A stretch of DNA of 29,380 bases from an uncultured Nitrosopumilales archaeon (GTDB lineage: Archaea > Thermoproteota > Nitrososphaeria > Nitrososphaerales > CAYNJB01). The stretch is taken from NCBI GenBank assembly GCA_964397515.1, contig CAYNJB010000001.1:1-29380 (forward strand). Reading direction: 5' to 3'. The position numbers and the translations under genes were made by a program. The notes below the pieces were generated by a model that made no database searches, was not told where the DNA came from, and saw nothing but the letters and a program-made list of their open reading frames with translations. Of the stretch, positions 7,633 through 28,889 are shown piece after piece (position 1 is the first letter of the stretch; each line of letters starts with the position of its first letter).

Positions 7633-7815
7633 TTAAGGTGCCTCGAATCCACAGTTTACACATTTATAGGTTCTAAAGAATTTGCGGCATTTTTCACATC
7701 GCCAGATTAAAATATCACCACATTCAGGACAATAAAATTTTACCGCTTTCTCCCCAGGCATAATAGGCCTATTACAAGAGGTACATAACGGAAGTTGGAA
7801 TTGATGTTCGGCCAA
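7633..7815 (-). CDS. Small double zinc-finger protein (DUF1610 / HVO_2753-like)
   Basis: CTSC..FYCPECG..IWRCEKCRK..YKCVNCGFEAP; the usual neighbour upstream of archaeal EF-1beta. Confidence 0.9.
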   Translation of the reverse strand: MAEHQFQLPLCTSCNRPIMPGEKAVKFYCPECGDILIWRCEKCRKFFRTYKCVNCGFEAP

Positions 7816-7908: not shown

Positions 7909-8118
7909 ATGTCTAAAAATTATTGTCCAGAATGTGGAGCCGATCTTTATTATGATGCGGCAGTTAGAAGATATACTTGTAAAAGCTGTGGATTGTATGC
8001 GACAAAAGATGAAATTAATGATATTAAAGACCGAGAAAGAGATAAGACTGATAGCTATAGGAAAAAGAGAAAATCTCAAGACGAATATCTAGATTGGTGG
8101 CTATCTAAAAAAAAGTAG
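7909..8118 (+). CDS. Small zinc-ribbon protein of unknown function
   Basis: CPECG and CKSCG pairs, charged helix, C-terminal YLDWWL; ATG start, divergent from the DUF1610-ef1b-cdc48 run. Confidence 0.8.
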   Translation: MSKNYCPECGADLYYDAAVRRYTCKSCGLYATKDEINDIKDRERDKTDSYRKKRKSQDEYLDWWLSKKK

Positions 8119-13354: not shown

Positions 13355-14896
13355 TTATCTTCGTTTTTTTATTATTGTGTTATTTGGATCTAGATTGATC
13401 CATTCAATTGTGTAGCCTAATGCTTCTAAAAGTTCAATAGTGTTTTTAAAACCGAGAGACTCTATTTTTGTCTCATAGTCTGGGAGAGTAGCATTTGTTA
13501 ATTCATCAATTTTCTTTTCCAAATTATTTAACTTACTTTTACTAATAAATTGGTCACCGATTATTCTATAATCTTTAATATCATCTCTCCGAAATTTTTC
13601 TCTTATCGATTCGACGGACATATTATATTCATTAGCAACCTCATCAATATTTTCTACATCCTTTGTTAGTTTTAATTTGATGTTTTGTAATAATTTTAAT
13701 TCGCGATCTATGATGATCGATTCTATATTCTTTAGATATTCAATGATTGGTTTTATTGGAACTTTCTTTTTAAAAATGATAAGGGGTCCCTTAAAATTCT
13801 TAATTTTTGAACATCCTAAATTTTCATCTATTGCCACGATCATAGAAACATTACGTAATTGTTCGAGCTTTCTAATTTTCCTTTCTAGGTATTCTTGTGT
13901 CCAAAAACCCACAATTTCAAGATATACTTTGACACCTCTTCTTTCAAAACTAAAGTCAGGTATCATCACATGTTCTCCGACTGACAAAAGTTCAGGCTCT
14001 CTTTTCAACAACCAAGATGAATTATATGAGTTAAAGTCATTAGCAAATCTTTCTTCAAGGGAGCTATCATAAATTTTCCCACTCAATATTTCACTATAAC
14101 TTTCACTAATTATTTCGGATATTTTACTATCTGATTCAAATTGATAAATTTTTGATTTTTTATTACTTAACACCTCTGCTTGTATCCACCATTCATCCGC
14201 AGATACTATTATTGGCACAATCTTAGCTAAAGTTGTTCCATATCGATCAGTCATCTTAAGTAATGATAGAGGTCCTTCCACTGTCACAACTGATTTTTCA
14301 TCAACACGTTCAATGGAGTAAATCAGACCTAACTTTTTAATTGATCTGAAAATTTCTTTCCAATTACTTGAAGAAAAAAATTTCATCCTCAATGACTTAA
14401 AAATTAATGTTTGAATTAATGAGAGATTATATTGTTTAACAAGTTTTTTTGGTTCAATAGGCTCATATTTTTTTAAGATAAGCTCATCATCAATATCACA
14501 AAATAATGCTTTTTCAAGTTCTTCGGTTTTAACATTTATCTTGATTGCGACATTGTTGATTATTTGATTTCGATTTACTAGTGCTTCTAACCTTTTTTTA
14601 CTTCCTTCTTCGAATACTTGCATTCTTGCTTCAACAGGGTTTATTATACTGTCAGCTTCAAATACACATCTTCTCTCAATAAGTTTTAAAAAACCTCTAA
14701 CAAGTTTAAAATCAAATTCTTTATCCTCTAATAATTTGATTTTTAATAAGATTTCTTTTTTCTTTTTCCCAATATTACTCGAAAAAAAATCGGTTATTGT
14801 GTTGACTAATCTTAAGGTGTTTGGATCAAAAAGAGCATACATTGGTTGAATTTTACCTTGTGAGATTCTGGCTCTTAATAGATTAGATGGAAGCAT
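13355..14896 (-). CDS. bax1: DUF790 family endonuclease (Bax1-like)
   Basis: MLPSNLL start, YNLSLIQTL, YGTTLAK, YDSSLEERFA, REPE...MIPDF...YLEIVGFWTQEYL (PD-(D/E)xK-like core); starts 4 nt after the XPB stop. Confidence 0.88.
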   Translation of the reverse strand: MLPSNLLRARISQGKIQPMYALFDPNTLRLVNTITDFFSSNIGKKKKEILLKIKLLEDKEFDFKLVRGFLKLIERRCVFEADSIINPVEARMQVFEEGSKKRLEALVNRNQIINNVAIKINVKTEELEKALFCDIDDELILKKYEPIEPKKLVKQYNLSLIQTLIFKSLRMKFFSSSNWKEIFRSIKKLGLIYSIERVDEKSVVTVEGPLSLLKMTDRYGTTLAKIVPIIVSADEWWIQAEVLSNKKSKIYQFESDSKISEIISESYSEILSGKIYDSSLEERFANDFNSYNSSWLLKREPELLSVGEHVMIPDFSFERRGVKVYLEIVGFWTQEYLERKIRKLEQLRNVSMIVAIDENLGCSKIKNFKGPLIIFKKKVPIKPIIEYLKNIESIIIDRELKLLQNIKLKLTKDVENIDEVANEYNMSVESIREKFRRDDIKDYRIIGDQFISKSKLNNLEKKIDELTNATLPDYETKIESLGFKNTIELLEALGYTIEWINLDPNNTIIKKRR

Positions 14897-14900
14897 TTTT

Positions 14901-16247
14901 TCACTCTCTAGATCTTTTTCTTTTCCAGCTTGTTCTCATTTCCGTGGTTTCTTTGGATACTAGCTCTATTAATTTTGATTTTTTGCGTCTATCCTTTCTT
15001 AATAAACGTCCTAATCTTTGGATGAACTCTCTTGAGCTTCCTGTACCACTTACAATTATTCCAAGAGATGCTTTAGGGACATCAATCCCTTCATCAAGAA
15101 CCTTTGATGTAACTACGGTCCAAAATCGCCCATCTTTGAATCTGCTTAATATTTCATTTCGCTCATCTTTACTGGTTAAATAAGTGATATAGGGTAACAG
15201 AAACTGCTTCGAGATTCTGTGAACTAGTTGATTATGCTGTGTGAAGATAATGATCTGTTCGTTTAGATTAGATTTTAATATTTCTTTTAAAGCTTGAATT
15301 TTAGTTTCTGAGTTGAACGCAATTTCTAAAGCCTTATTTCTTGAGAGAAGAGCTTGTCTAGCAGATTTATCTCTGCCAGTTATCATAATAAATTTTCTGA
15401 AATCATGTGTATTAGTTAGTTTAATCTTACGTCTAATAAGAAAATCAGTGAATTGTTTAAAATACTGGTCATATTCTTTTTTTTCATGTTCACTTAAATC
15501 AACATTTATTCTTTCAAGTGAATATTCTGCAAGATAACTACCTGCCAAATCACTAGGTTGCAGCTTAAAAACTATTCCTCCTATTAACCTTGGAAGCTCA
15601 TTATGGAGCATATCTTCTCTTTCGAAGGTTGCTGTAAGACCCATACGATATTGTGCAGTAAACATTTCCGCTATCTGCTTGTAACCTTCTGCGGGAAGAT
15701 GGTGAACCTCGTCAAAAATTATTAATCCAAATCTGTTTCCTATTTCTCCAGCTCTAAGATATGCAGAATTATAAGTTGCTACAGTAACAGATTCTAGTTT
15801 ATTAGTTCCTCCACCATAAACACCTATTTCAATATTGAAAGATTCGATAAGTTTTGTTCTCCATTGTTCAAGTAAGTCAAGAGTTGGGACGATAATTATG
15901 CTGGCTGTGTTTGCTTCTTCAATAGCTTTAATTGCAATAATCGTTTTACCAGATCCTGTAGGTAATACAATTGTACCCTTTTTTCCGGCCTTGATCCAAT
16001 TCTGTAAAGCTTTATTCTGATATCCTCTTAGAGATATGTTTGATTTAAAATTAGGTGAAGGTATTAATTGTTGGACATTGTCATCAATTAATATTTTACT
16101 TTGATTAAGATACTCGATAATATCTCTGTAATATAAACCCTGACTTCTAAATGACTTTGTTCGATTATCCCAAAAAGAGTGAGGAACTCTAACATCGCCC
16201 TTTAAAATTAAACTACCCTTGTCAAATGATAGGGTAGGAGTTGACAT
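14901..16247 (-). CDS. xpb: XPB/Rad25-like SF2 DNA helicase
   Basis: LRGYQ, LPTGSGKT, DEVH, GLTATFER, LDEGIDVP, QRLGRLLR; paired with DUF790 as in archaeal XPB-Bax1 operons. Confidence 0.92.
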   Translation of the reverse strand: MSTPTLSFDKGSLILKGDVRVPHSFWDNRTKSFRSQGLYYRDIIEYLNQSKILIDDNVQQLIPSPNFKSNISLRGYQNKALQNWIKAGKKGTIVLPTGSGKTIIAIKAIEEANTASIIIVPTLDLLEQWRTKLIESFNIEIGVYGGGTNKLESVTVATYNSAYLRAGEIGNRFGLIIFDEVHHLPAEGYKQIAEMFTAQYRMGLTATFEREDMLHNELPRLIGGIVFKLQPSDLAGSYLAEYSLERINVDLSEHEKKEYDQYFKQFTDFLIRRKIKLTNTHDFRKFIMITGRDKSARQALLSRNKALEIAFNSETKIQALKEILKSNLNEQIIIFTQHNQLVHRISKQFLLPYITYLTSKDERNEILSRFKDGRFWTVVTSKVLDEGIDVPKASLGIIVSGTGSSREFIQRLGRLLRKDRRKKSKLIELVSKETTEMRTSWKRKRSRE

Positions 16248-23213: not shown

Positions 23214-24722
23214 TTATTTGCCTTTTTTAATAAATAATTTGTTGATTCCGTTGAGAAGGGCTTCAACACTTGAGACTACAATATCTTCTCCAGTACTACG
23301 TGCTGAAGCAAAATTTCCTTTATTGTCTCCGACTTTAACAAGAACTTCAGACAAAGCTTCTGATCCCCCTGTTAAGGCTTCAAGTCGGTATTCTGTAAGA
23401 GAAATTTTAGCTATTTCTTCAGTAATTTTATGTATTGCTTTTACAGCTGCATCTACTGGTCCGACACCTGTTTCGGAAGCTACATAAATTTGGCCTTCAA
23501 GATCTATCTTTACTGACGCAGTAGGAACAACATTTGTTCCGGTCATCACTGAGAAATCAATTAATTTCACCTTTTTTTTACTTTCAACAGGGTTTTCAAC
23601 TATAGATCTAGATAATGCTTCAATATCTGAATCAGTTAAGGATCTTCCTTTATCACCCATTTCCTTAATTTGATTCATGATAATTTTAAGTTGTTCATCT
23701 GTGGGGGAGAAGCCAAGTTCATTAAGTTGAGATTTTATTCCATGAGTACCAGCATGTTTTCCTGCTTGAATCCACCTTCTTCGTCCTACAAGGTCTGGGT
23801 CGATAGGTTCGTAAGTAGTAGGCATGGATAATACACCATGGGTGTGAATGCCTGATTCATGACCGAAAGCATTGTCGCCTACAATAGCTTTGTTTGGTTG
23901 AACTACGACACCCGTCAGTTTTGATACGAGCCTGCTGGTTTCATAGATAAGCTTTGTATTTATTTTTGTTTTCTTTGAATAAAAACAATGAAGAGCCATA
24001 ACGACTTCTTCTAATGATGCGTTCCCTGCTCTTTCACCTATACCATTGACAGTAGCATGAATTTGTGATGCTCCAGCTTCAACAGCCGCAAGAGAATTTG
24101 CAACTGCTAGACCAAAATCATTATGGCAGTGAATAGCTATAGGTGTTTTAATAACAGATTTTATCTCTTTTACTAAGGAACTCATTTTTGATGGAGTTGC
24201 TACACCAACTGTGTCAGGAATGTTTATTCGATCAGCGCCTGCATTTACTACTTCCTTAAGAAATTTTTTTAGAAAATGTGGATCTGAACGAGTAGCGTCT
24301 TCAGCTGAAAATTCTACAGTTACTCCATGTTTTTTAGCATATTCAACTCCAGTAATTGCGTTCTTTAGAGCTTTAGCTTTAGTGATTTTTAGCTTATGTT
24401 TAAGATGTATATCAGATGTTGCTATAAATAAGTGAATACTTTCTACATCGCACGCTAGGGCTACATCTATATCTTTTTTGTCAACTCTAGCTAAGGCACA
24501 TATTTCGGCGTTCAAACCTGCTTTAGCAATAGATTTGACAGATTTGCGTTCTCCGCGTGAAGTTATTGGAAAACCAGCTTCTATAGCGTCTACACCAAGT
24601 GTATCAAGTCGTCTTGCAATCTCTAATTTCTCATCTACGGTTAGAGAGACTCCGGGTGTCTGTTCTCCATCACGGAGAGTGGTATCGAATATTCGAATAT
24701 GTTGATTTGTTTGTTTGGGTAT
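23214..24722 (-). CDS. leuA: 2-isopropylmalate synthase; start extended beyond the ORF-track call, no canonical start codon
   Basis: Frame is open upstream of the 24515 TTG and encodes IRIFDTTLRDGEQTPG...IEAGFP, then HCHND, GERAGNA, HESGIH and a regulatory domain (GVGPVDA, GGSEAL). The nearest upstream in-frame stop is at 24768-24770. ATA at 24722 is used as a provisional start (502 aa). Citramalate/homocitrate paralog status is not excluded. Confidence 0.88.
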   Translation of the reverse strand: MPKQTNQHIRIFDTTLRDGEQTPGVSLTVDEKLEIARRLDTLGVDAIEAGFPITSRGERKSVKSIAKAGLNAEICALARVDKKDIDVALACDVESIHLFIATSDIHLKHKLKITKAKALKNAITGVEYAKKHGVTVEFSAEDATRSDPHFLKKFLKEVVNAGADRINIPDTVGVATPSKMSSLVKEIKSVIKTPIAIHCHNDFGLAVANSLAAVEAGASQIHATVNGIGERAGNASLEEVVMALHCFYSKKTKINTKLIYETSRLVSKLTGVVVQPNKAIVGDNAFGHESGIHTHGVLSMPTTYEPIDPDLVGRRRWIQAGKHAGTHGIKSQLNELGFSPTDEQLKIIMNQIKEMGDKGRSLTDSDIEALSRSIVENPVESKKKVKLIDFSVMTGTNVVPTASVKIDLEGQIYVASETGVGPVDAAVKAIHKITEEIAKISLTEYRLEALTGGSEALSEVLVKVGDNKGNFASARSTGEDIVVSSVEALLNGINKLFIKKGK

Positions 24723-24727
24723 CGTAT

Positions 24728-25210
24728 TTACCCCCGTTGTAGAGCTGTAATGCCTGTTCGAGATATGTCACGTATGCCAAAACTTGATACTAGTTTAATG
24801 AAAGAATCAATTTTAGTTGGATCACCCGTAATTTCAACTGTTATGGTTTCATTTGATACGTCAACGATTCTACACCTATATATTTGGGAGAAATTCAGCA
24901 CATCTACTCTAGTTTTTTGATCTAAAACATTTAACTTGATCAAAGCTAGTTCTCTTACTACAGATGTTTGTTGTTCAAGTAAAGTTATTTTTACAACATC
25001 TATAAGTTTACCAAGTTGCTTTATTAGTTGTTCAACTGTTAATTCATCACCGTTTACAACTATGGTCATTTTGGCAAGTCCGGGTTTCTCTGTGCGCCCC
25101 ACGGTTATACTTTCTATATTGAAGCCTCTTCGTCTAAACATGTTTGAGGCTCTAAAAAGTACTCCCGGTTTGTTTTCAACGATAGTAGAAAGTATGTAAA
25201 GATCGCCCAT
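24728..25210 (-). CDS. ilvH: Acetolactate synthase small regulatory subunit (two ACT domains)
   Basis: VENKPGVL...FRRRGFNIESITVG, EQLIKQLGKLIDV, RELALIK, EITGD, RTGITALQRG. Confidence 0.95.
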   Translation of the reverse strand: MGDLYILSTIVENKPGVLFRASNMFRRRGFNIESITVGRTEKPGLAKMTIVVNGDELTVEQLIKQLGKLIDVVKITLLEQQTSVVRELALIKLNVLDQKTRVDVLNFSQIYRCRIVDVSNETITVEITGDPTKIDSFIKLVSSFGIRDISRTGITALQRG

Positions 25211-25214
25211 GATT

Positions 25215-26912
25215 TTATCTTATATCCTGTGAACTATATAATATGTCTTTTAGTCCTTTTCCTGGAGGTACAAACGGATATACATCTTCGTCAGGGGAAA
25301 CAGGGATGTCGATTACTGTAGGTACTTCGTTTCGTAACCCAGAACGTAAAGCTTTTTCTACTTCTTTAATAGATTGAGCTCTTATTCCTTCAGCTCCATA
25401 AGATTCAGCTAACTTTACGAAGTCAGGAGTATTTTTAAATTTAATAGCTGAATATCTTTTATCATAAAACAATCTTTGCCATTGTTCAACCAAGCCTAGA
25501 GATCTATTGTTTAATATAGCTACAATGATTGGTATTTTTTCTTCGACGCATACTGCCAACGAATTTTCGGTCATGCAGAAACTTCCATCTCCGGCAAGAT
25601 CAACTACAGGAACATCTGGTTTTGCAACTTTAGCTCCAATAGCAGCTGGAAAACCGAAACCCATTGTACCTAAACCTGTAGAGGTAATCCATGTTCGTGG
25701 TTTAATAACTTTATAATGCAATTCTGCAAACATCTGATGTTTTCCAACTTCAGTTGCAAGTATGCCTTCAGGAGGTAAAATTTCGCGGATTTTTTTAATA
25801 ATTTTAATAGTTTTTAGATTGGCCCAGTCCAAATCTTTGTTGTTCTTTAGTTCGTCTCTTACTTCATTAATTCTTTTTAACCACAGTGAGCCCCTTTTTC
25901 TTTTGATTTTAAGTCTTAAAGATTCATATATTTGAGTTAATGCAATTTTGGCGTCTCCAACTATAGGTAATTGTACCTGTTTATTTTTTCCGATCTCTGA
26001 AGGATCAATATCTATATGAATTATTTTTGCGTCTGGACAAAATTTGTTAAATAGTCCAGTAGTTCTATCGGAAAATCTTACTCCGACAGCTAAAACACAA
26101 TCAGCTTCACAAATTAATTTATTTCCCTCTGGAGTACCATGCATTCCAATTGGACCTAAAGATAATGGATGATTCTCTGGAAAACTTCCTTTTCCGATTA
26201 AAGTAGTTACTACTGGAACTAAAAGAAGTTCAACAATGCTCTGAAGTGACTCTGACGCATTACATAAAATGACTCCGCCTCCAGACAAAATAATTGGTTT
26301 TTCAGCGTTTAAGAGAAGAGCAGCTGCCCGTTCAATTTGTAGATGATGAGGCTCAATTGCAGGTTTGTATCCTCTAATGACAACTTTTTCTGGAAATTTA
26401 ATATTTGTTTTCTCTTGTTGAACATCTTTTGGTATATCGATTATAACTGGACCAGGTCTGCCAGTGGAAGCTATATGAAATGCTTTCTTTAAATCATAAG
26501 GAATTTCAGCTGAATTCATTGGTTGGAAAGTATATTTTGTTATCGCAGTTGTTATCCCGATAATATCAGTTTCTTGGAATGAGTCCTTGCCAATAAGAGA
26601 TTTTGCAACTTGGCCTGTTATAGCAATAATTGGAGACGAGTCAGCGTAAGCAGTAGCTATACCTGTAACAAGATTTGTTGCTCCTGGACCAGAAGTTGCA
26701 AAGCAAACTCCAACTTTCCCACTTGCTCGAGCATAACCATCGGCCATATGAGCTGCAGATTGCTCATGTCTACAAAGTATATGACGTATATCACTATTAT
26801 AGAGTTCATCATATATAGGAAGAGTTGCACCTCCGGGTATACCAAAGATATTTGATACACCTTCACGCTTTAATGATTTCATTAAAGCTTTAGCGCCAAT
26901 CATTTCAACCAA
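25215..26912 (-). CDS. ilvB: Acetolactate synthase large catalytic subunit
   Basis: FGIPGGA, RHEQ, TSGPGATN, GQV, FQE, GRPGPV, GLGTMGFG, GDGSF...NNRSLGLV TPP motif; TTG at 26912 or ATG at 26903. Confidence 0.96.
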   Translation of the reverse strand: MVEMIGAKALMKSLKREGVSNIFGIPGGATLPIYDELYNSDIRHILCRHEQSAAHMADGYARASGKVGVCFATSGPGATNLVTGIATAYADSSPIIAITGQVAKSLIGKDSFQETDIIGITTAITKYTFQPMNSAEIPYDLKKAFHIASTGRPGPVIIDIPKDVQQEKTNIKFPEKVVIRGYKPAIEPHHLQIERAAALLLNAEKPIILSGGGVILCNASESLQSIVELLLVPVVTTLIGKGSFPENHPLSLGPIGMHGTPEGNKLICEADCVLAVGVRFSDRTTGLFNKFCPDAKIIHIDIDPSEIGKNKQVQLPIVGDAKIALTQIYESLRLKIKRKRGSLWLKRINEVRDELKNNKDLDWANLKTIKIIKKIREILPPEGILATEVGKHQMFAELHYKVIKPRTWITSTGLGTMGFGFPAAIGAKVAKPDVPVVDLAGDGSFCMTENSLAVCVEEKIPIIVAILNNRSLGLVEQWQRLFYDKRYSAIKFKNTPDFVKLAESYGAEGIRAQSIKEVEKALRSGLRNEVPTVIDIPVSPDEDVYPFVPPGKGLKDILYSSQDIR

Positions 26913-26969
26913 AATACTAAATCATCTTCATATAACAACAAATTTACATTTGAATCTTTGGGTATGAGT

Positions 26970-27068
26970 TTATAGCACTACCAAGAGGGATAGCTGGGCA
27001 GATATTAGTCTGAGAACTAGGCAAGTGTAGACCAGACTTTCTTTGAATGTGCAAATTATTCCCTGCAT
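26970..27068 (-). CDS. Candidate BCAA-rich leader peptide (32 aa) upstream of ilvB, absent from the ORF track
   Basis: ATG...TAA, MQGIICTFKESLVYTCLVLRLISAQLSLLVVL*; 8 Leu, 4 Val, 3 Ile; stop 57 nt before ilvB on the same strand; TATA-like CTTAAAAA at 27100-27093. Confidence 0.55.
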   Translation of the reverse strand: MQGIICTFKESLVYTCLVLRLISAQLSLLVVL

Positions 27069-27092
27069 TATGCATTAGGTTTAGGTTTTAAG

Positions 27093-27110
27093 TTTTTAAG
27101 TTTTATTTTT
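27093..27110 (-). promoter_or_regulatory. Putative promoter for the leader-ilvB-ilvH-leuA transcript
   Basis: A-rich BRE-like tract then CTTAAAAA (27100-27093); usual archaeal spacing puts the TSS near 27068-27070, at the leader ATG. Other TATA-like boxes exist nearby (e.g. 27158-27151). Confidence 0.4.
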
Positions 27111-27230
27111 TTTAATTTTTTATTTTATTATTGTAATTAATGAATGATATATATTAAACAAGTTACTTGGATATTTGCTACTTTTTTTCCGTAACTGATA
27201 AAAAAGACCGCGTTTCAATATAGAATCACT

Positions 27231-28889
27231 TTGAGGAGCGATGTTATTAAAAAAGGGTTTGATAGGGCCCCGCATAGAAGTCTTTTAAAGGCGTTGGGAC
27301 TTGTTGATAGTGATTTAGAAAAACCGTTTATAGGGATTGCTAATTCATTTGTAGAAATAGTTCCAGGCCATAGTCATTTACATGAACTCGGTAAGATTGT
27401 GAAGCAAGGAGTAAGAGAAGCAGGTGGTATGCCTTTTGAGTTTAACACAATAGCTGTAGATGATGGGATTGCTATGGGTCACTTGGGGATGAGATATTCC
27501 CTCCCAAGCAGGGAATTGATTGCTGATTCGATAGAAACAATGGTTCAAGCACATTGTTTTGATGGACTTGTTTGCATAACTAATTGTGATAAAATTGTTC
27601 CTGGAATGCTTATGGGTGCAGTACGAGTTAACATACCGACTATTATTGTTAGTGGAGGACCAATGCTAGCTGGGAAGACATCTAAAGACAAAGTGATTGA
27701 TCTTTCTTCTGTGTTTGAAGCGGTTGGTTCTCACCAGGCTGGACTAATAACAGATTCTGAATTCAAAGAAATAGAGGATTTAGCTTGTCCAAGTTGTGGT
27801 TCCTGTTCCGGTCTTTTCACTGCAAACTCAATGAATTGTTTGTGTGAAGCCTTGGGTATATCTTTACCAGGTAATGGAACTATACTTGCGGTTTCTCCGG
27901 ATAGAATTAAACTTGCTAAAAAAGCTGGACAGAGTATCCTTAGATTAATTGATCTAGATTTGAAACCTAGGGACATTATCACAATGGAATCTATAGACAA
28001 TGCTATGATTTTAGATATGGCAATGGGTGGATCAACTAACACAGTATTACATCTCTTGGCCGTTGCTAAAGAATCAGGAATAGAATATTCATTAAAGAGA
28101 GTTGATGATCTAACTGGAAAAGTACCTCAGATATGTAAAGTTAGTCCAGCGTCACAATATCACATGGAAGATGTGGATAGAGCAGGCGGAGTAAGCGCTA
28201 TTCTCAAAGAGATAAGTAAAAAAAATATTCTACAATTAGATCAGGTCACTGTTACTACTGAAACCCTTGCAAATAACATTAGAAATTCTGAAGTAAAAGA
28301 TAAATTAGTAATTCATTCTATAGATAATCCATATCGGTCTAATGGAGGGCTTGCTGTTTTTTACGGAAATTTAGCTCCTGAGGGAGCTTTACTTAAAATT
28401 GGAGCAGTGGAATCAGACATTATCCATACAGGTAAATCGGTTATTTTTAATTCACAAGACTCAGCTATCAAAGGAATTAAATCAGGTTTAATTAAAAAAG
28501 GTGATGTTGTAGTTATTAGATATGAGGGACCAAAAGGTGGTCCAGGAATGCCAGAGATGTTAGCACCGACAGCTATGATTGTAGGACAGGGACTTGGTAA
28601 GGATGTTGCACTTCTGACTGATGGAAGATTTTCAGGGGCAACTAGAGGGATTTGTATTGGACATATTTCACCAGAAGCCGCACTAGGAGGCCCAATAGGA
28701 TTTCTTGAAGAGGGGGACATAATAACAATAGATTTGCCTAAAAGAAAAGTTGATGTAAAAATTTCCAGTGAAGAACTTGAAGATAGGAGAAAAAGATGGG
28801 TTGCACCAAATCCGAAAATTTCAACAGGATATCTTGCAAGGTATACAAAGTTTGTTTCTTCGGCTAGTAATGGAGCGGTACTGCAATAA
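27231..28889 (+). CDS. ilvD: Dihydroxy-acid dehydratase
   Basis: [77 protein letters not shown]; TTG start. Confidence 0.97.

Follow-up and report, generated by a model that had tools for sequence, protein, structure and literature searches.

The window analysed here, a 29,380-nt stretch of contig CAYNJB010000001.1 from an uncultured Nitrosopumilales archaeon, carries on its minus strand the genes ilvB, ilvN (ilvH) and leuA, and directly upstream of ilvB a short open reading frame (ORF) rich in the branched-chain amino acids (BCAAs) Leu, Ile and Val. The initial annotation had described this ORF as a candidate BCAA-sensing leader. Its coordinates, its residue counts, its Leu codon skew and its distance to ilvB all proved correct, and profile matches bore out the three neighbouring genes. 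The ORF runs from an ATG at 27068-27066 to a TAA at 26972-26970 and encodes the 32-residue peptide MQGIICTFKESLVYTCLVLRLISAQLSLLVVL, in which 15 of the 32 residues are branched-chain (eight Leu, three Ile, four Val), with 11 such residues among the last 16. Its Leu codons are CTA (four), CTC (two), CTG (one) and TTG (one), and none is TTA or CTT, two codons that make up 65% of Leu codons across 19 window genes (0.35^8 = 2 × 10^-4). No Shine-Dalgarno (SD) sequence lies ahead of the ATG. The stop codon is separated by 57 nt (26969-26913) from ilvB, whose start we place at the TTG at 26912 because the M-V-E-M N-terminus is kept in relatives. The features of the locus are collected in Table 1.

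Table 1 Features of the leader-ilvB locus and its neighbours, in window coordinates.
Feature	Coordinates	Strand	Description
Two tandem TATA-like boxes	CTTAAAAA 27100..27093; CTTAAAAC 27092..27085	-	Predicted promoter of the leader-ilvB transcript
Leader ORF, 32 codons + TAA	26970..27068	-	Product MQGIICTFKESLVYTCLVLRLISAQLSLLVVL
BCAA-rich tail, candidate control codons (codons 17-32)	26973..27020	-	11/16 Leu/Ile/Val; ends directly at the stop codon
Spacer, 57 nt	26913..26969	-	Weak interrupted hairpin; position homologous to relatives' strong stop-adjacent hairpins
ilvB, acetolactate synthase large subunit	25215..26912	-	Proposed first regulated gene; TTG start; TIGR00118, 775 bits
ilvN/ilvH, acetolactate synthase small subunit	24728..25210	-	TIGR00119 / NF008864
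leuA, 2-isopropylmalate synthase	23214..24697	-	NF002085, 581 bits; match begins at profile position 75
ilvD, dihydroxy-acid dehydratase, divergent	27231..28889	+	TIGR00110, 817 bits; shares the 318-nt intergenic region with leader-ilvB

An ORF of this size might arise by chance in an AT-rich intergenic region, and some ATG-initiated ORF of at least 20 codons is indeed present at the right place in 28% of the shuffled 318-nt intergenic sequences. When dinucleotide-preserving shuffles were required to yield such an ORF, ending 15-130 nt before ilvB and with at least 11 Leu/Ile/Val among its last 16 residues, only one in 5000 (0.02%) did so. A second ORF (27075-26944), which lies in a different frame and has 43 residues, lacks BCAA enrichment and is not kept in two of the relatives compared (L083 and L084). 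The leader interval has been left empty by gene callers on near-identical TARA Oceans marine scaffolds, for example TARA_SAMEA2619970_METAG-scaffold_814 (L161-L163); the window itself has a GC content of 35%, and its near-identity to these scaffolds indicates that it stems from a marine archaeon.

We then compared the DNA upstream of ilvB across Nitrososphaeria and Bathyarchaeia, anchoring 161 loci on the ilvB start by tblastn and using the 147 that had 250 nt of upstream sequence. The M-V-E-M N-terminus is conserved in this set, with an ATG or TTG start in 146 of the 161 loci. Among the matches listed, IlvB identity to the window is 99% for a metagenome contig (L081), 74-75% for four loci labelled Nitrososphaeria / Nitrosopumilales (L001-L003 and L082), 66-67% for L083 and L084, and about 60% for Nitrosopumilaceae, Nitrososphaeraceae and Bathyarchaeia; the closest IlvB in a species-level genome collection, again among the matches listed, is 75% identical, so that the window may belong to a marine lineage related to Nitrososphaeria that has been poorly sampled. 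From each locus we took, among same-strand ORFs whose stop lies 15-130 nt ahead of ilvB, the one richest in Leu/Ile/Val over its last 10 residues. At least six of these 10 residues were Leu/Ile/Val in 119 of the 147 loci (81%) and at least seven in 63%, whereas only 18% reached six on the reverse complement of the same upstream DNA. The mean was 6.29, compared with 3.35 for the reverse complement and 3.13 for shuffled sequence. For 262 other long ORFs of these loci, the upstream DNA reached six in 8.8% of cases, seven in 2.7% and eight in none (Mann-Whitney p = 3 × 10^-40 for ilvB-upstream against other-gene-upstream DNA). Homologous in-frame leader ORFs are found in L081, L083, L084, L002, L082 and L003, and in-frame leaders persist in relatives down to 60% IlvB identity; together with the shuffles, this effectively refutes a chance origin. 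On this comparative evidence, the window ORF is a true member of a conserved family of short upstream ORFs that precede ilvB(-ilvN-leuA) in Nitrososphaeria and Bathyarchaeia.

The members of this family share little as peptides. Those of the nearest relatives read MQGIICTFKESLVSTCLVLKLISAQISLLVVL (L081), MTNTLETFTSRIGLTLLVVAVVPVLSLLVLI (L083), ...VVVQLVLLQVA (L002) and ...LLAVQLVLLIVS (L003), and the last nine codons of the window leader match L002, L003 and L082 codon for codon. Further examples are MKLGGSTSISSILLLVDLML, MTVMNKISPISILSIVLLVDLSL, MLNTYSETTGTHVDLLLLVVLLD, MPQTGSEHSRHKIKILVLLVIA and MSHNVAAVSGAFRPSPVVIAASLILVIILLL, and Bathyarchaeia leaders end in ...QLLKVVVVLH, ...AVILEVVVILH or ...LIALLIVVLVLLV. 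The peptides are 17 to 43 residues long and vary in their N-terminal part, which is polar. At positions -9 to -1 before the stop, Leu/Ile/Val make up 66-91% of residues, with Asp, Glu and Lys tolerated within the run, while Phe, Met, Ala, Trp, Cys, Gly and Tyr together account for at most 6%, the last position excepted; since the loci of this profile were preselected for at least six of 10 Leu/Ile/Val, only the exclusivity and the position of the run are independent information. The Leu codon preference likewise extends to the whole family, CTA, CTG and TTG making up 78% of Leu codons in leader tails compared with 35% in the adjacent ilvB genes.

Substitutions in the tails follow the same rule. 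Along a minimum spanning tree of 85 distinct nine-codon tails, changes at Leu/Ile/Val codons comprised 61 synonymous changes, 32 exchanges within Leu/Ile/Val and 35 changes to or from other residues, against a random single-base expectation of 34%, 20% and 46%, respectively. The initial annotation had proposed testing whether relatives keep a short BCAA-coding ORF while its synonymous sites vary, and this is the pattern we observed (81% of loci versus 9% for other genes, with the 61 synonymous changes). Between the window and its near-identical relative L081, the leader differs by four substitutions (Y14S, R20K, L26I and a synonymous TTG to CTG), with nucleotide identities of 96.0% for the leader, 98.3% for ilvB and 95.7% for the promoter region. 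These differences indicate that the amino-acid sequence of the leader drifts while its frame, stop and BCAA content persist. Judged from these alignments, it is the composition and position of the Leu/Ile/Val run that are conserved and not the peptide sequence, as one would expect for a leader peptide that matters through its codons rather than its product.

The same data bear on whether the ORF encodes a small hydrophobic protein acting in trans, for instance a membrane-anchored peptide that is merely co-located with ilvB. The C-terminal 22 residues of the window peptide are indeed mostly hydrophobic, and some bacterial leader peptides do have trans functions (peTrpL). In most relatives, however, the hydrophobic run spans only 8-10 residues, is interrupted by Asp, Glu or Lys (e.g. 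ILLLVDLKL) and contains almost no Phe, Met, Ala or Trp; neither the N-terminus nor the length is conserved, and three of the four substitutions that separate the window from L081 are non-synonymous. Moreover, only one of 10 tested leader-family peptides was present in a collection of 15 billion proteins, without a name. We therefore regard a trans-acting peptide as very unlikely.

Upstream of the leader, the TATA-like box CTTAAAAA that the initial annotation had placed about 25-32 nt before the ATG is present, and it is followed in tandem by CTTAAAAC. Both align with the CTTATAAAC / TTTATTAA boxes of relatives, and across the family the leader is preceded by TTTATAAAT, TTTATTAAT or CTTATAAAC. 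The distance from the first T of the box to the leader start codon is 31 nt in the window and 25-38 nt in the family, with a mode of 35-36 nt. Archaeal TATA boxes are centred near -26/-27; with this spacing, the transcript is predicted to begin at the leader start codon or a few nucleotides before it, which in the window would correspond to a transcription start site (TSS) at about 27068-27070. Since the predicted start lies downstream of the out-of-frame ATG at 27075, the BCAA frame would stand at the transcript's 5' end. The suggestion that the ORF is a leaderless first cistron is consistent with TATA-to-start spacing across the family, whose leader ORFs are probably leaderless.

A separate ilvB promoter within the window spacer was considered and judged unlikely: a TTATAT hexamer that stops 19 nt short of the TTG is wrongly spaced for one, and the TTG has the SD-like GAAGATGAT (26929-26921) ahead of it, from which we infer that ilvB requires a 5' leader. 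In the clade whose leaders begin MKLGGS... (L026, L036, L037 and others), the leader stop lies only about 30 nt from an ilvB ATG that is itself preceded by an SD (GGTGA), which leaves no space for a separate ilvB promoter and favours co-transcription. A distinct arrangement was seen in Nitrosopumilaceae, where an invariant TTAAAATTATGG stands about 36 nt upstream of the ilvB ATG in L019, L027, L096 and 26 other loci. It forms an AT-rich hairpin with a T-run that trails the leader stop hairpin. What follows it is a mini-ORF of seven codons (e.g. MVIMFGV*) or else, in some lineages, an in-frame stretch that extends IlvB at its N-terminus. Given its promoter-like distance from ilvB, this element might serve as a second promoter or belong to the switch.

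In most relatives a hairpin starts close to the leader stop codon, at the earliest 4 nt ahead of it and at the latest about 14 nt past it. In a set of 50 diverse loci, a perfect-stem hairpin at the stop scored at least 15 in 58% compared with 19% of shuffles, and at least 20 in 30% compared with 2%. The stems are wholly different between clades (GCTGTA/TACAGC, CCTGCA/TGCAGG, GCCCACA/TGTGGGC, GGGCTCA/TGAGCCC and GCGCCTTAAG/CTTAAGGCGC). A T-run comes after the hairpin in many Nitrosopumilales, as in TGTGCTGTAaatTACAGCATA-TTTTTGG and CCTGCGtttcttTGCAGGG-TTTTTG, and in many of them the BCAA run overlaps the hairpin that the T-run follows, for example GCTGTAaattTACAGC with TTTACTTTTG, or CCTGCG..GCAGGG with TTTTTG. 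A T-run as a universal feature was rejected, its enrichment being only modest. Within the ORF, the polar N-terminal codons pair with the Leu-Leu-Val codons, with three compensatory pairs between two clades; for manually specified helices in Nitrosopumilaceae, 84% of cells are paired compared with 17-54% when the helices are slid, and there is little covariation within that clade. In the MKLGGS... clade, leader codons 3-5 (K-L-G-G) contain AGGAGG, a perfect SD-like sequence that forms the 5' arm of this intra-ORF hairpin.

In other lineages the 3' end of the leader pairs with the ribosome-binding site (RBS) of ilvB. The last leader codons pair with the ilvB SD in four Bathyarchaeia loci and in the L005/L085-L088 and L007 types, e.g. 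TCCTCC with GGAGGA. Anti-SD-like tails (TCCTCC, CCCCTTCT or CTTCATTAA) occur in L005, L085-L088, L007, L018, L023, L049 and L078 and pair with the ilvB SD in predicted folds, making these lineages a translational variant of the element. Sequestration of the ilvB RBS was found only in subsets of the family (L005, L007, L015, L018, L023, L024, L049 and L078), and in the window the RBS has a probability of being unpaired of 0.40, against 0.37 when the upstream sequence is shuffled. A classical antiterminator was found only in Nitrosopumilaceae of the L030 type and was rejected as a general feature; the stop hairpin persists when the last 11 codons join the fold.

The window copy is structurally the poorest of the family together with L081. 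Its spacer contains the hairpin CAAAT-GTAA-ATTTG at 26952-26939 followed by TTGTTATAT, as the initial annotation had noted, enclosed by TCATA/TATGA (26967-26963 with 26932-26928) and CAA/TTG (26960-26958 with 26938-26936), and it also holds the U-rich TTTGTTGTTATAT (26942-26930). The caution that this hairpin is too weak for a classic attenuator holds for the window. No terminator was found in the window by a scan for bacterial-type sigma-70 promoters and terminators that was otherwise uninformative, and no overlap of the BCAA run with a terminator hairpin and poly-U was found there. Additionally, Rfam 15 gave no match at the gathering threshold for the window or 15 related loci; a sub-threshold SNORD56-like match on the plus strand (E = 0.91), obtained at permissive thresholds, was dismissed as noise.

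Such structures raise the question of whether the RNA, as a protein- or ligand-binding leader, a plain terminator or a processing site, is what selection preserves, with the ORF incidental. Hairpins are conserved both within the ORF and at its stop, one of them with compensatory changes, and the Leu-Leu-Val codons of Nitrosopumilales are conserved at the nucleotide level. Set against this, the frame stays open with the same end point in 81% of loci despite very different nucleotides, the start codon coincides with the predicted TSS, and the Leu/Ile/Val codons have undergone 61 synonymous changes. The window and L081 also keep the ORF in the absence of a stable structure, and no Rfam family is matched. 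A purely structural role is thus quite unlikely in our judgement.

Alternatively, the ORF could be translated with no sensing of BCAAs at all, serving as a constitutive ribosome entry point with termination-reinitiation to ilvB or protecting the 5' end of the mRNA. The proximity of the leader stop to ilvB (30-70 nt), the SD-preceded ilvB starts after the leader and the lack of both general RBS sequestration and an antiterminator all fit such a role. Yet it leaves unexplained why the last nine codons of otherwise unrelated peptides are 66-91% Leu/Ile/Val, why changes preserve BCAAs and rare Leu codons are preferred, and why the run goes with ilvB rather than with the other 262 genes tested. We consider this explanation unlikely.

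The reading we favour is that the leader acts in cis as a sensor of charged Leu-, Ile- and Val-tRNA, to which we assign a probability of roughly 0.65; the comparative test supports the BCAA leader-peptide interpretation first proposed for the window. In the mechanism we propose, transcription would begin at or beside the ATG, some 25-30 nt downstream from the CTTAAAAA box, and a ribosome would load at the 5' end and translate the 32 codons. When BCAA-tRNAs are scarce, it would stall on the Leu/Ile/Val codons, the rare Leu codons included, within the last 9-16 positions. The archaeal ribosome has a 27-nt footprint, with 15-16 nt from the P site to its 3' edge (PMC7261190). As the footprint reaches about 12-13 nt past the A site, a stalled ribosome would occupy the stop codon and the first 5-12 nt of the spacer, where the helix next to the stop has its 5' arm. 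The stalled ribosome itself would thereby keep this helix from forming, so that no antiterminator would be required; we propose that this is why the control codons abut the stop, unlike those of enterobacterial leaders. Under sufficient supply, fast translation and release would let the helix form, and ilvB-ilvN-leuA expression would be lower. Since the helix is terminator-like in many Nitrosopumilales and SD-masking in Bathyarchaeia and some basal Nitrososphaeria, starvation would raise expression of these genes either way. We infer both the direction of the output and its mode, read-through or re-initiation. Transmission of the signal by the window copy is the least certain step, because its stop-adjacent structure is too weak to claim.

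Several points weigh against this sensor reading. The leader's translation, its TSS, stalling and a BCAA response are all predictions made from DNA. In the window, the spacer folds at -3.5 kcal/mol (z = +1.6 versus shuffles), which does not support a structure, the 201-nt leader region is no more stably folded than its shuffled counterparts (z = +1.0), and the internal hairpin is disrupted by a substitution in L081. Across the family, no conserved antiterminator in which the codon region pairs with the 5' arm of the stop hairpin was found; T-runs behind the stop are only modestly enriched (at least four T in 46% of the diverse set versus 30% of shuffles); and sequestration of the SD or start codon as a family-wide property was rejected, the mean probability of an unpaired RBS being 0.45 versus 0.43 for shuffles. 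The Leu-Leu-Val codons of Nitrosopumilales (TTGCTAGTTG) are an arm of the conserved hairpin, and part of their conservation could therefore be structural. To our knowledge, termination that depends on a hairpin has not been established for archaeal RNA polymerase, and a terminator output would have to assume a polymerase/ribosome timing that yields the right sign; for a version dependent on FttA/aCPSF1 we found no specific support, seeing no feature that would give that sign. Furthermore, Nitrosocaldus-type loci, many loci of Nitrososphaeraceae and L001, whose upstream neighbour differs, have either a degenerate leader or none. Even in a bacterial counterpart, the Streptomyces coelicolor ilvB leader, mutation of the candidate control codons left regulation unchanged (PMC1262725). 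As a separate observation on the Nitrosocaldus-type loci, the ORF before ilvB in L008 and L090 is Met-rich (…CIMMMMVMSIIGLGL…) and has no clean Leu/Ile/Val run.

Two of the neighbouring genes have unusual starts. In the upstream part of leuA (24516-24727, minus strand), the frame contains no ATG, GTG or TTG from the stop that precedes it up to the conserved motif IRIFDTTLRDGEQ and reads ...GVNTIPKQTNQHIRIFD. The 98%-identical L081 likewise has no such start, whereas other relatives have an ATG or TTG 3-8 codons before the motif. Because there is no canonical upstream start, gene callers begin leuA at an internal TTG, giving a protein of 433 residues that is about 74 residues short. This suggests that leuA translation begins either at ATT or ATA, as a non-canonical start, or by re-initiation behind ilvN. 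The ilvD gene, whose divergent layout is common to L002, L003 and L081, starts with TTG as in L002 and has an A-rich box, GATAAAAAAG, about 30 nt upstream (27195-27233, plus strand), an arrangement suggestive of a divergent promoter within the shared intergenic region that would give rise to a leaderless ilvD mRNA. Elsewhere in the window, genes for an XPB helicase and a DUF790 (Bax1-like) protein form a pair (13355-16247, minus strand), and two small CxxC zinc-ribbon ORFs (7633-7815, minus; 7909-8118, plus) flank an aEF-1beta gene. ARAGORN found no tRNA in the window. Across 163 loci and the window, no convincing leader-like mini-ORF biased towards other amino acids was seen before other genes, in a set with too few biosynthetic operons for a firmer statement.

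Leader-peptide attenuation is a textbook bacterial mechanism whose logic depends on coupled transcription and translation. In line with the initial annotation, which knew of no archaeal BCAA leader-peptide system, we found no archaeal leader-peptide attenuator in the full-text literature, which mostly excluded subscription journals, so that this is absence of evidence only. The leader is potentially the first of its kind in Archaea and is widespread in ammonia-oxidising archaea and Bathyarchaeia. That it represents the first archaeal amino-acid-sensing leader-peptide system, old and widespread in Nitrososphaeria and Bathyarchaeia, in which a ribosome stalled on a leaderless mini-ORF blocks a stop-adjacent hairpin, is a proposition we hold to be evenly balanced. 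If true, archaea would regulate amino-acid biosynthesis through ribosome stalling on cognate codons, and translation-coupled, hairpin-assisted control of transcription or translation would work with the archaeal RNA polymerase and ribosome. The leader would then provide a natural compact reporter for archaeal transcription-translation coupling and termination as well as a first handle on BCAA regulation in globally abundant ammonia-oxidising archaea, and it would open up a systematic search for cognate-codon mini-ORFs before other archaeal biosynthetic operons. Since the family has cultured members (Nitrosopumilus, Nitrososphaera), the question is directly testable.

Among the known systems, the enterobacterial leaders ilvL (of ilvGMEDA), ivbL (of ilvBN) and leuL are about 28-32 residues long and carry runs of Leu, Ile and Val, with rare CUA control codons in leuL, and ribosome stalling is the sensor. 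Such classical leaders have mutually exclusive 1:2, 2:3 and 3:4 hairpins, a strong intrinsic terminator, control codons in the middle of the peptide and an SD sequence of their own. The window resembles them in having a Leu/Ile/Val-rich leader of 32 residues before a BCAA biosynthetic operon, the short ORF being co-oriented with and directly before that operon and its enrichment in end-product codons being conserved. In contrast to the enterobacterial leaders, the archaeal ones have their BCAA run directly against the stop codon, seem to be leaderless and share no conserved scheme of alternative pairings; in the window, neither an intrinsic terminator nor mutually exclusive antiterminator/terminator pairings were found.

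A second parallel is offered by the mycobacterial polycysteine leaderless short ORFs of the Cys 'ribulon', in which experiments showed that ribosomes stalled on cognate codons unmask the RBS of the next gene (bioRxiv 10.1101/834739). The archaeal leader is similarly an unannotated and, by prediction, leaderless first cistron, and Bathyarchaeia and L005/L007-type loci pair its tail with the ilvB SD. The two differ in the amino acid and in the domain of life, and RBS sequestration is neither general in the archaeal family nor seen in the window.

The actinobacterial ilvB leaders, those of Mycobacterium, Streptomyces and Corynebacterium glutamicum, come nearer still. Their BCAA runs overlap a terminator hairpin and poly-U (PMC1262725), and in C. 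glutamicum the TSS of IlvL (MTIIRLVVVTARRLP) lies 1 nt from the leader start (PMC11857589). Like these, the archaeal element is a short Ile/Val/Leu-rich ORF directly before ilvB(-ilvN...), the actinobacterial ORFs being leaderless or nearly so and the archaeal ones predicted to be; many Nitrosopumilales relatives have exactly the actinobacterial layout, with a BCAA run overlapping a hairpin and a U-run. Unlike the actinobacterial leaders, the archaeal ones depend on a TATA/TFB promoter and on the archaeal RNA polymerase and ribosome. Their spacer to ilvB measures 30-70 nt as against a 292-nt regulatory region in C. glutamicum, no set of three terminator, antiterminator and anti-antiterminator hairpins was found in them, and the window copy has no convincing terminator. 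No sequence similarity was detected between the actinobacterial and archaeal peptides, for which no homology test was made. By its proposed mechanism, the archaeal leader would be grouped with the bacterial leader-peptide attenuators, closest to the actinobacterial leaderless ilvB type.

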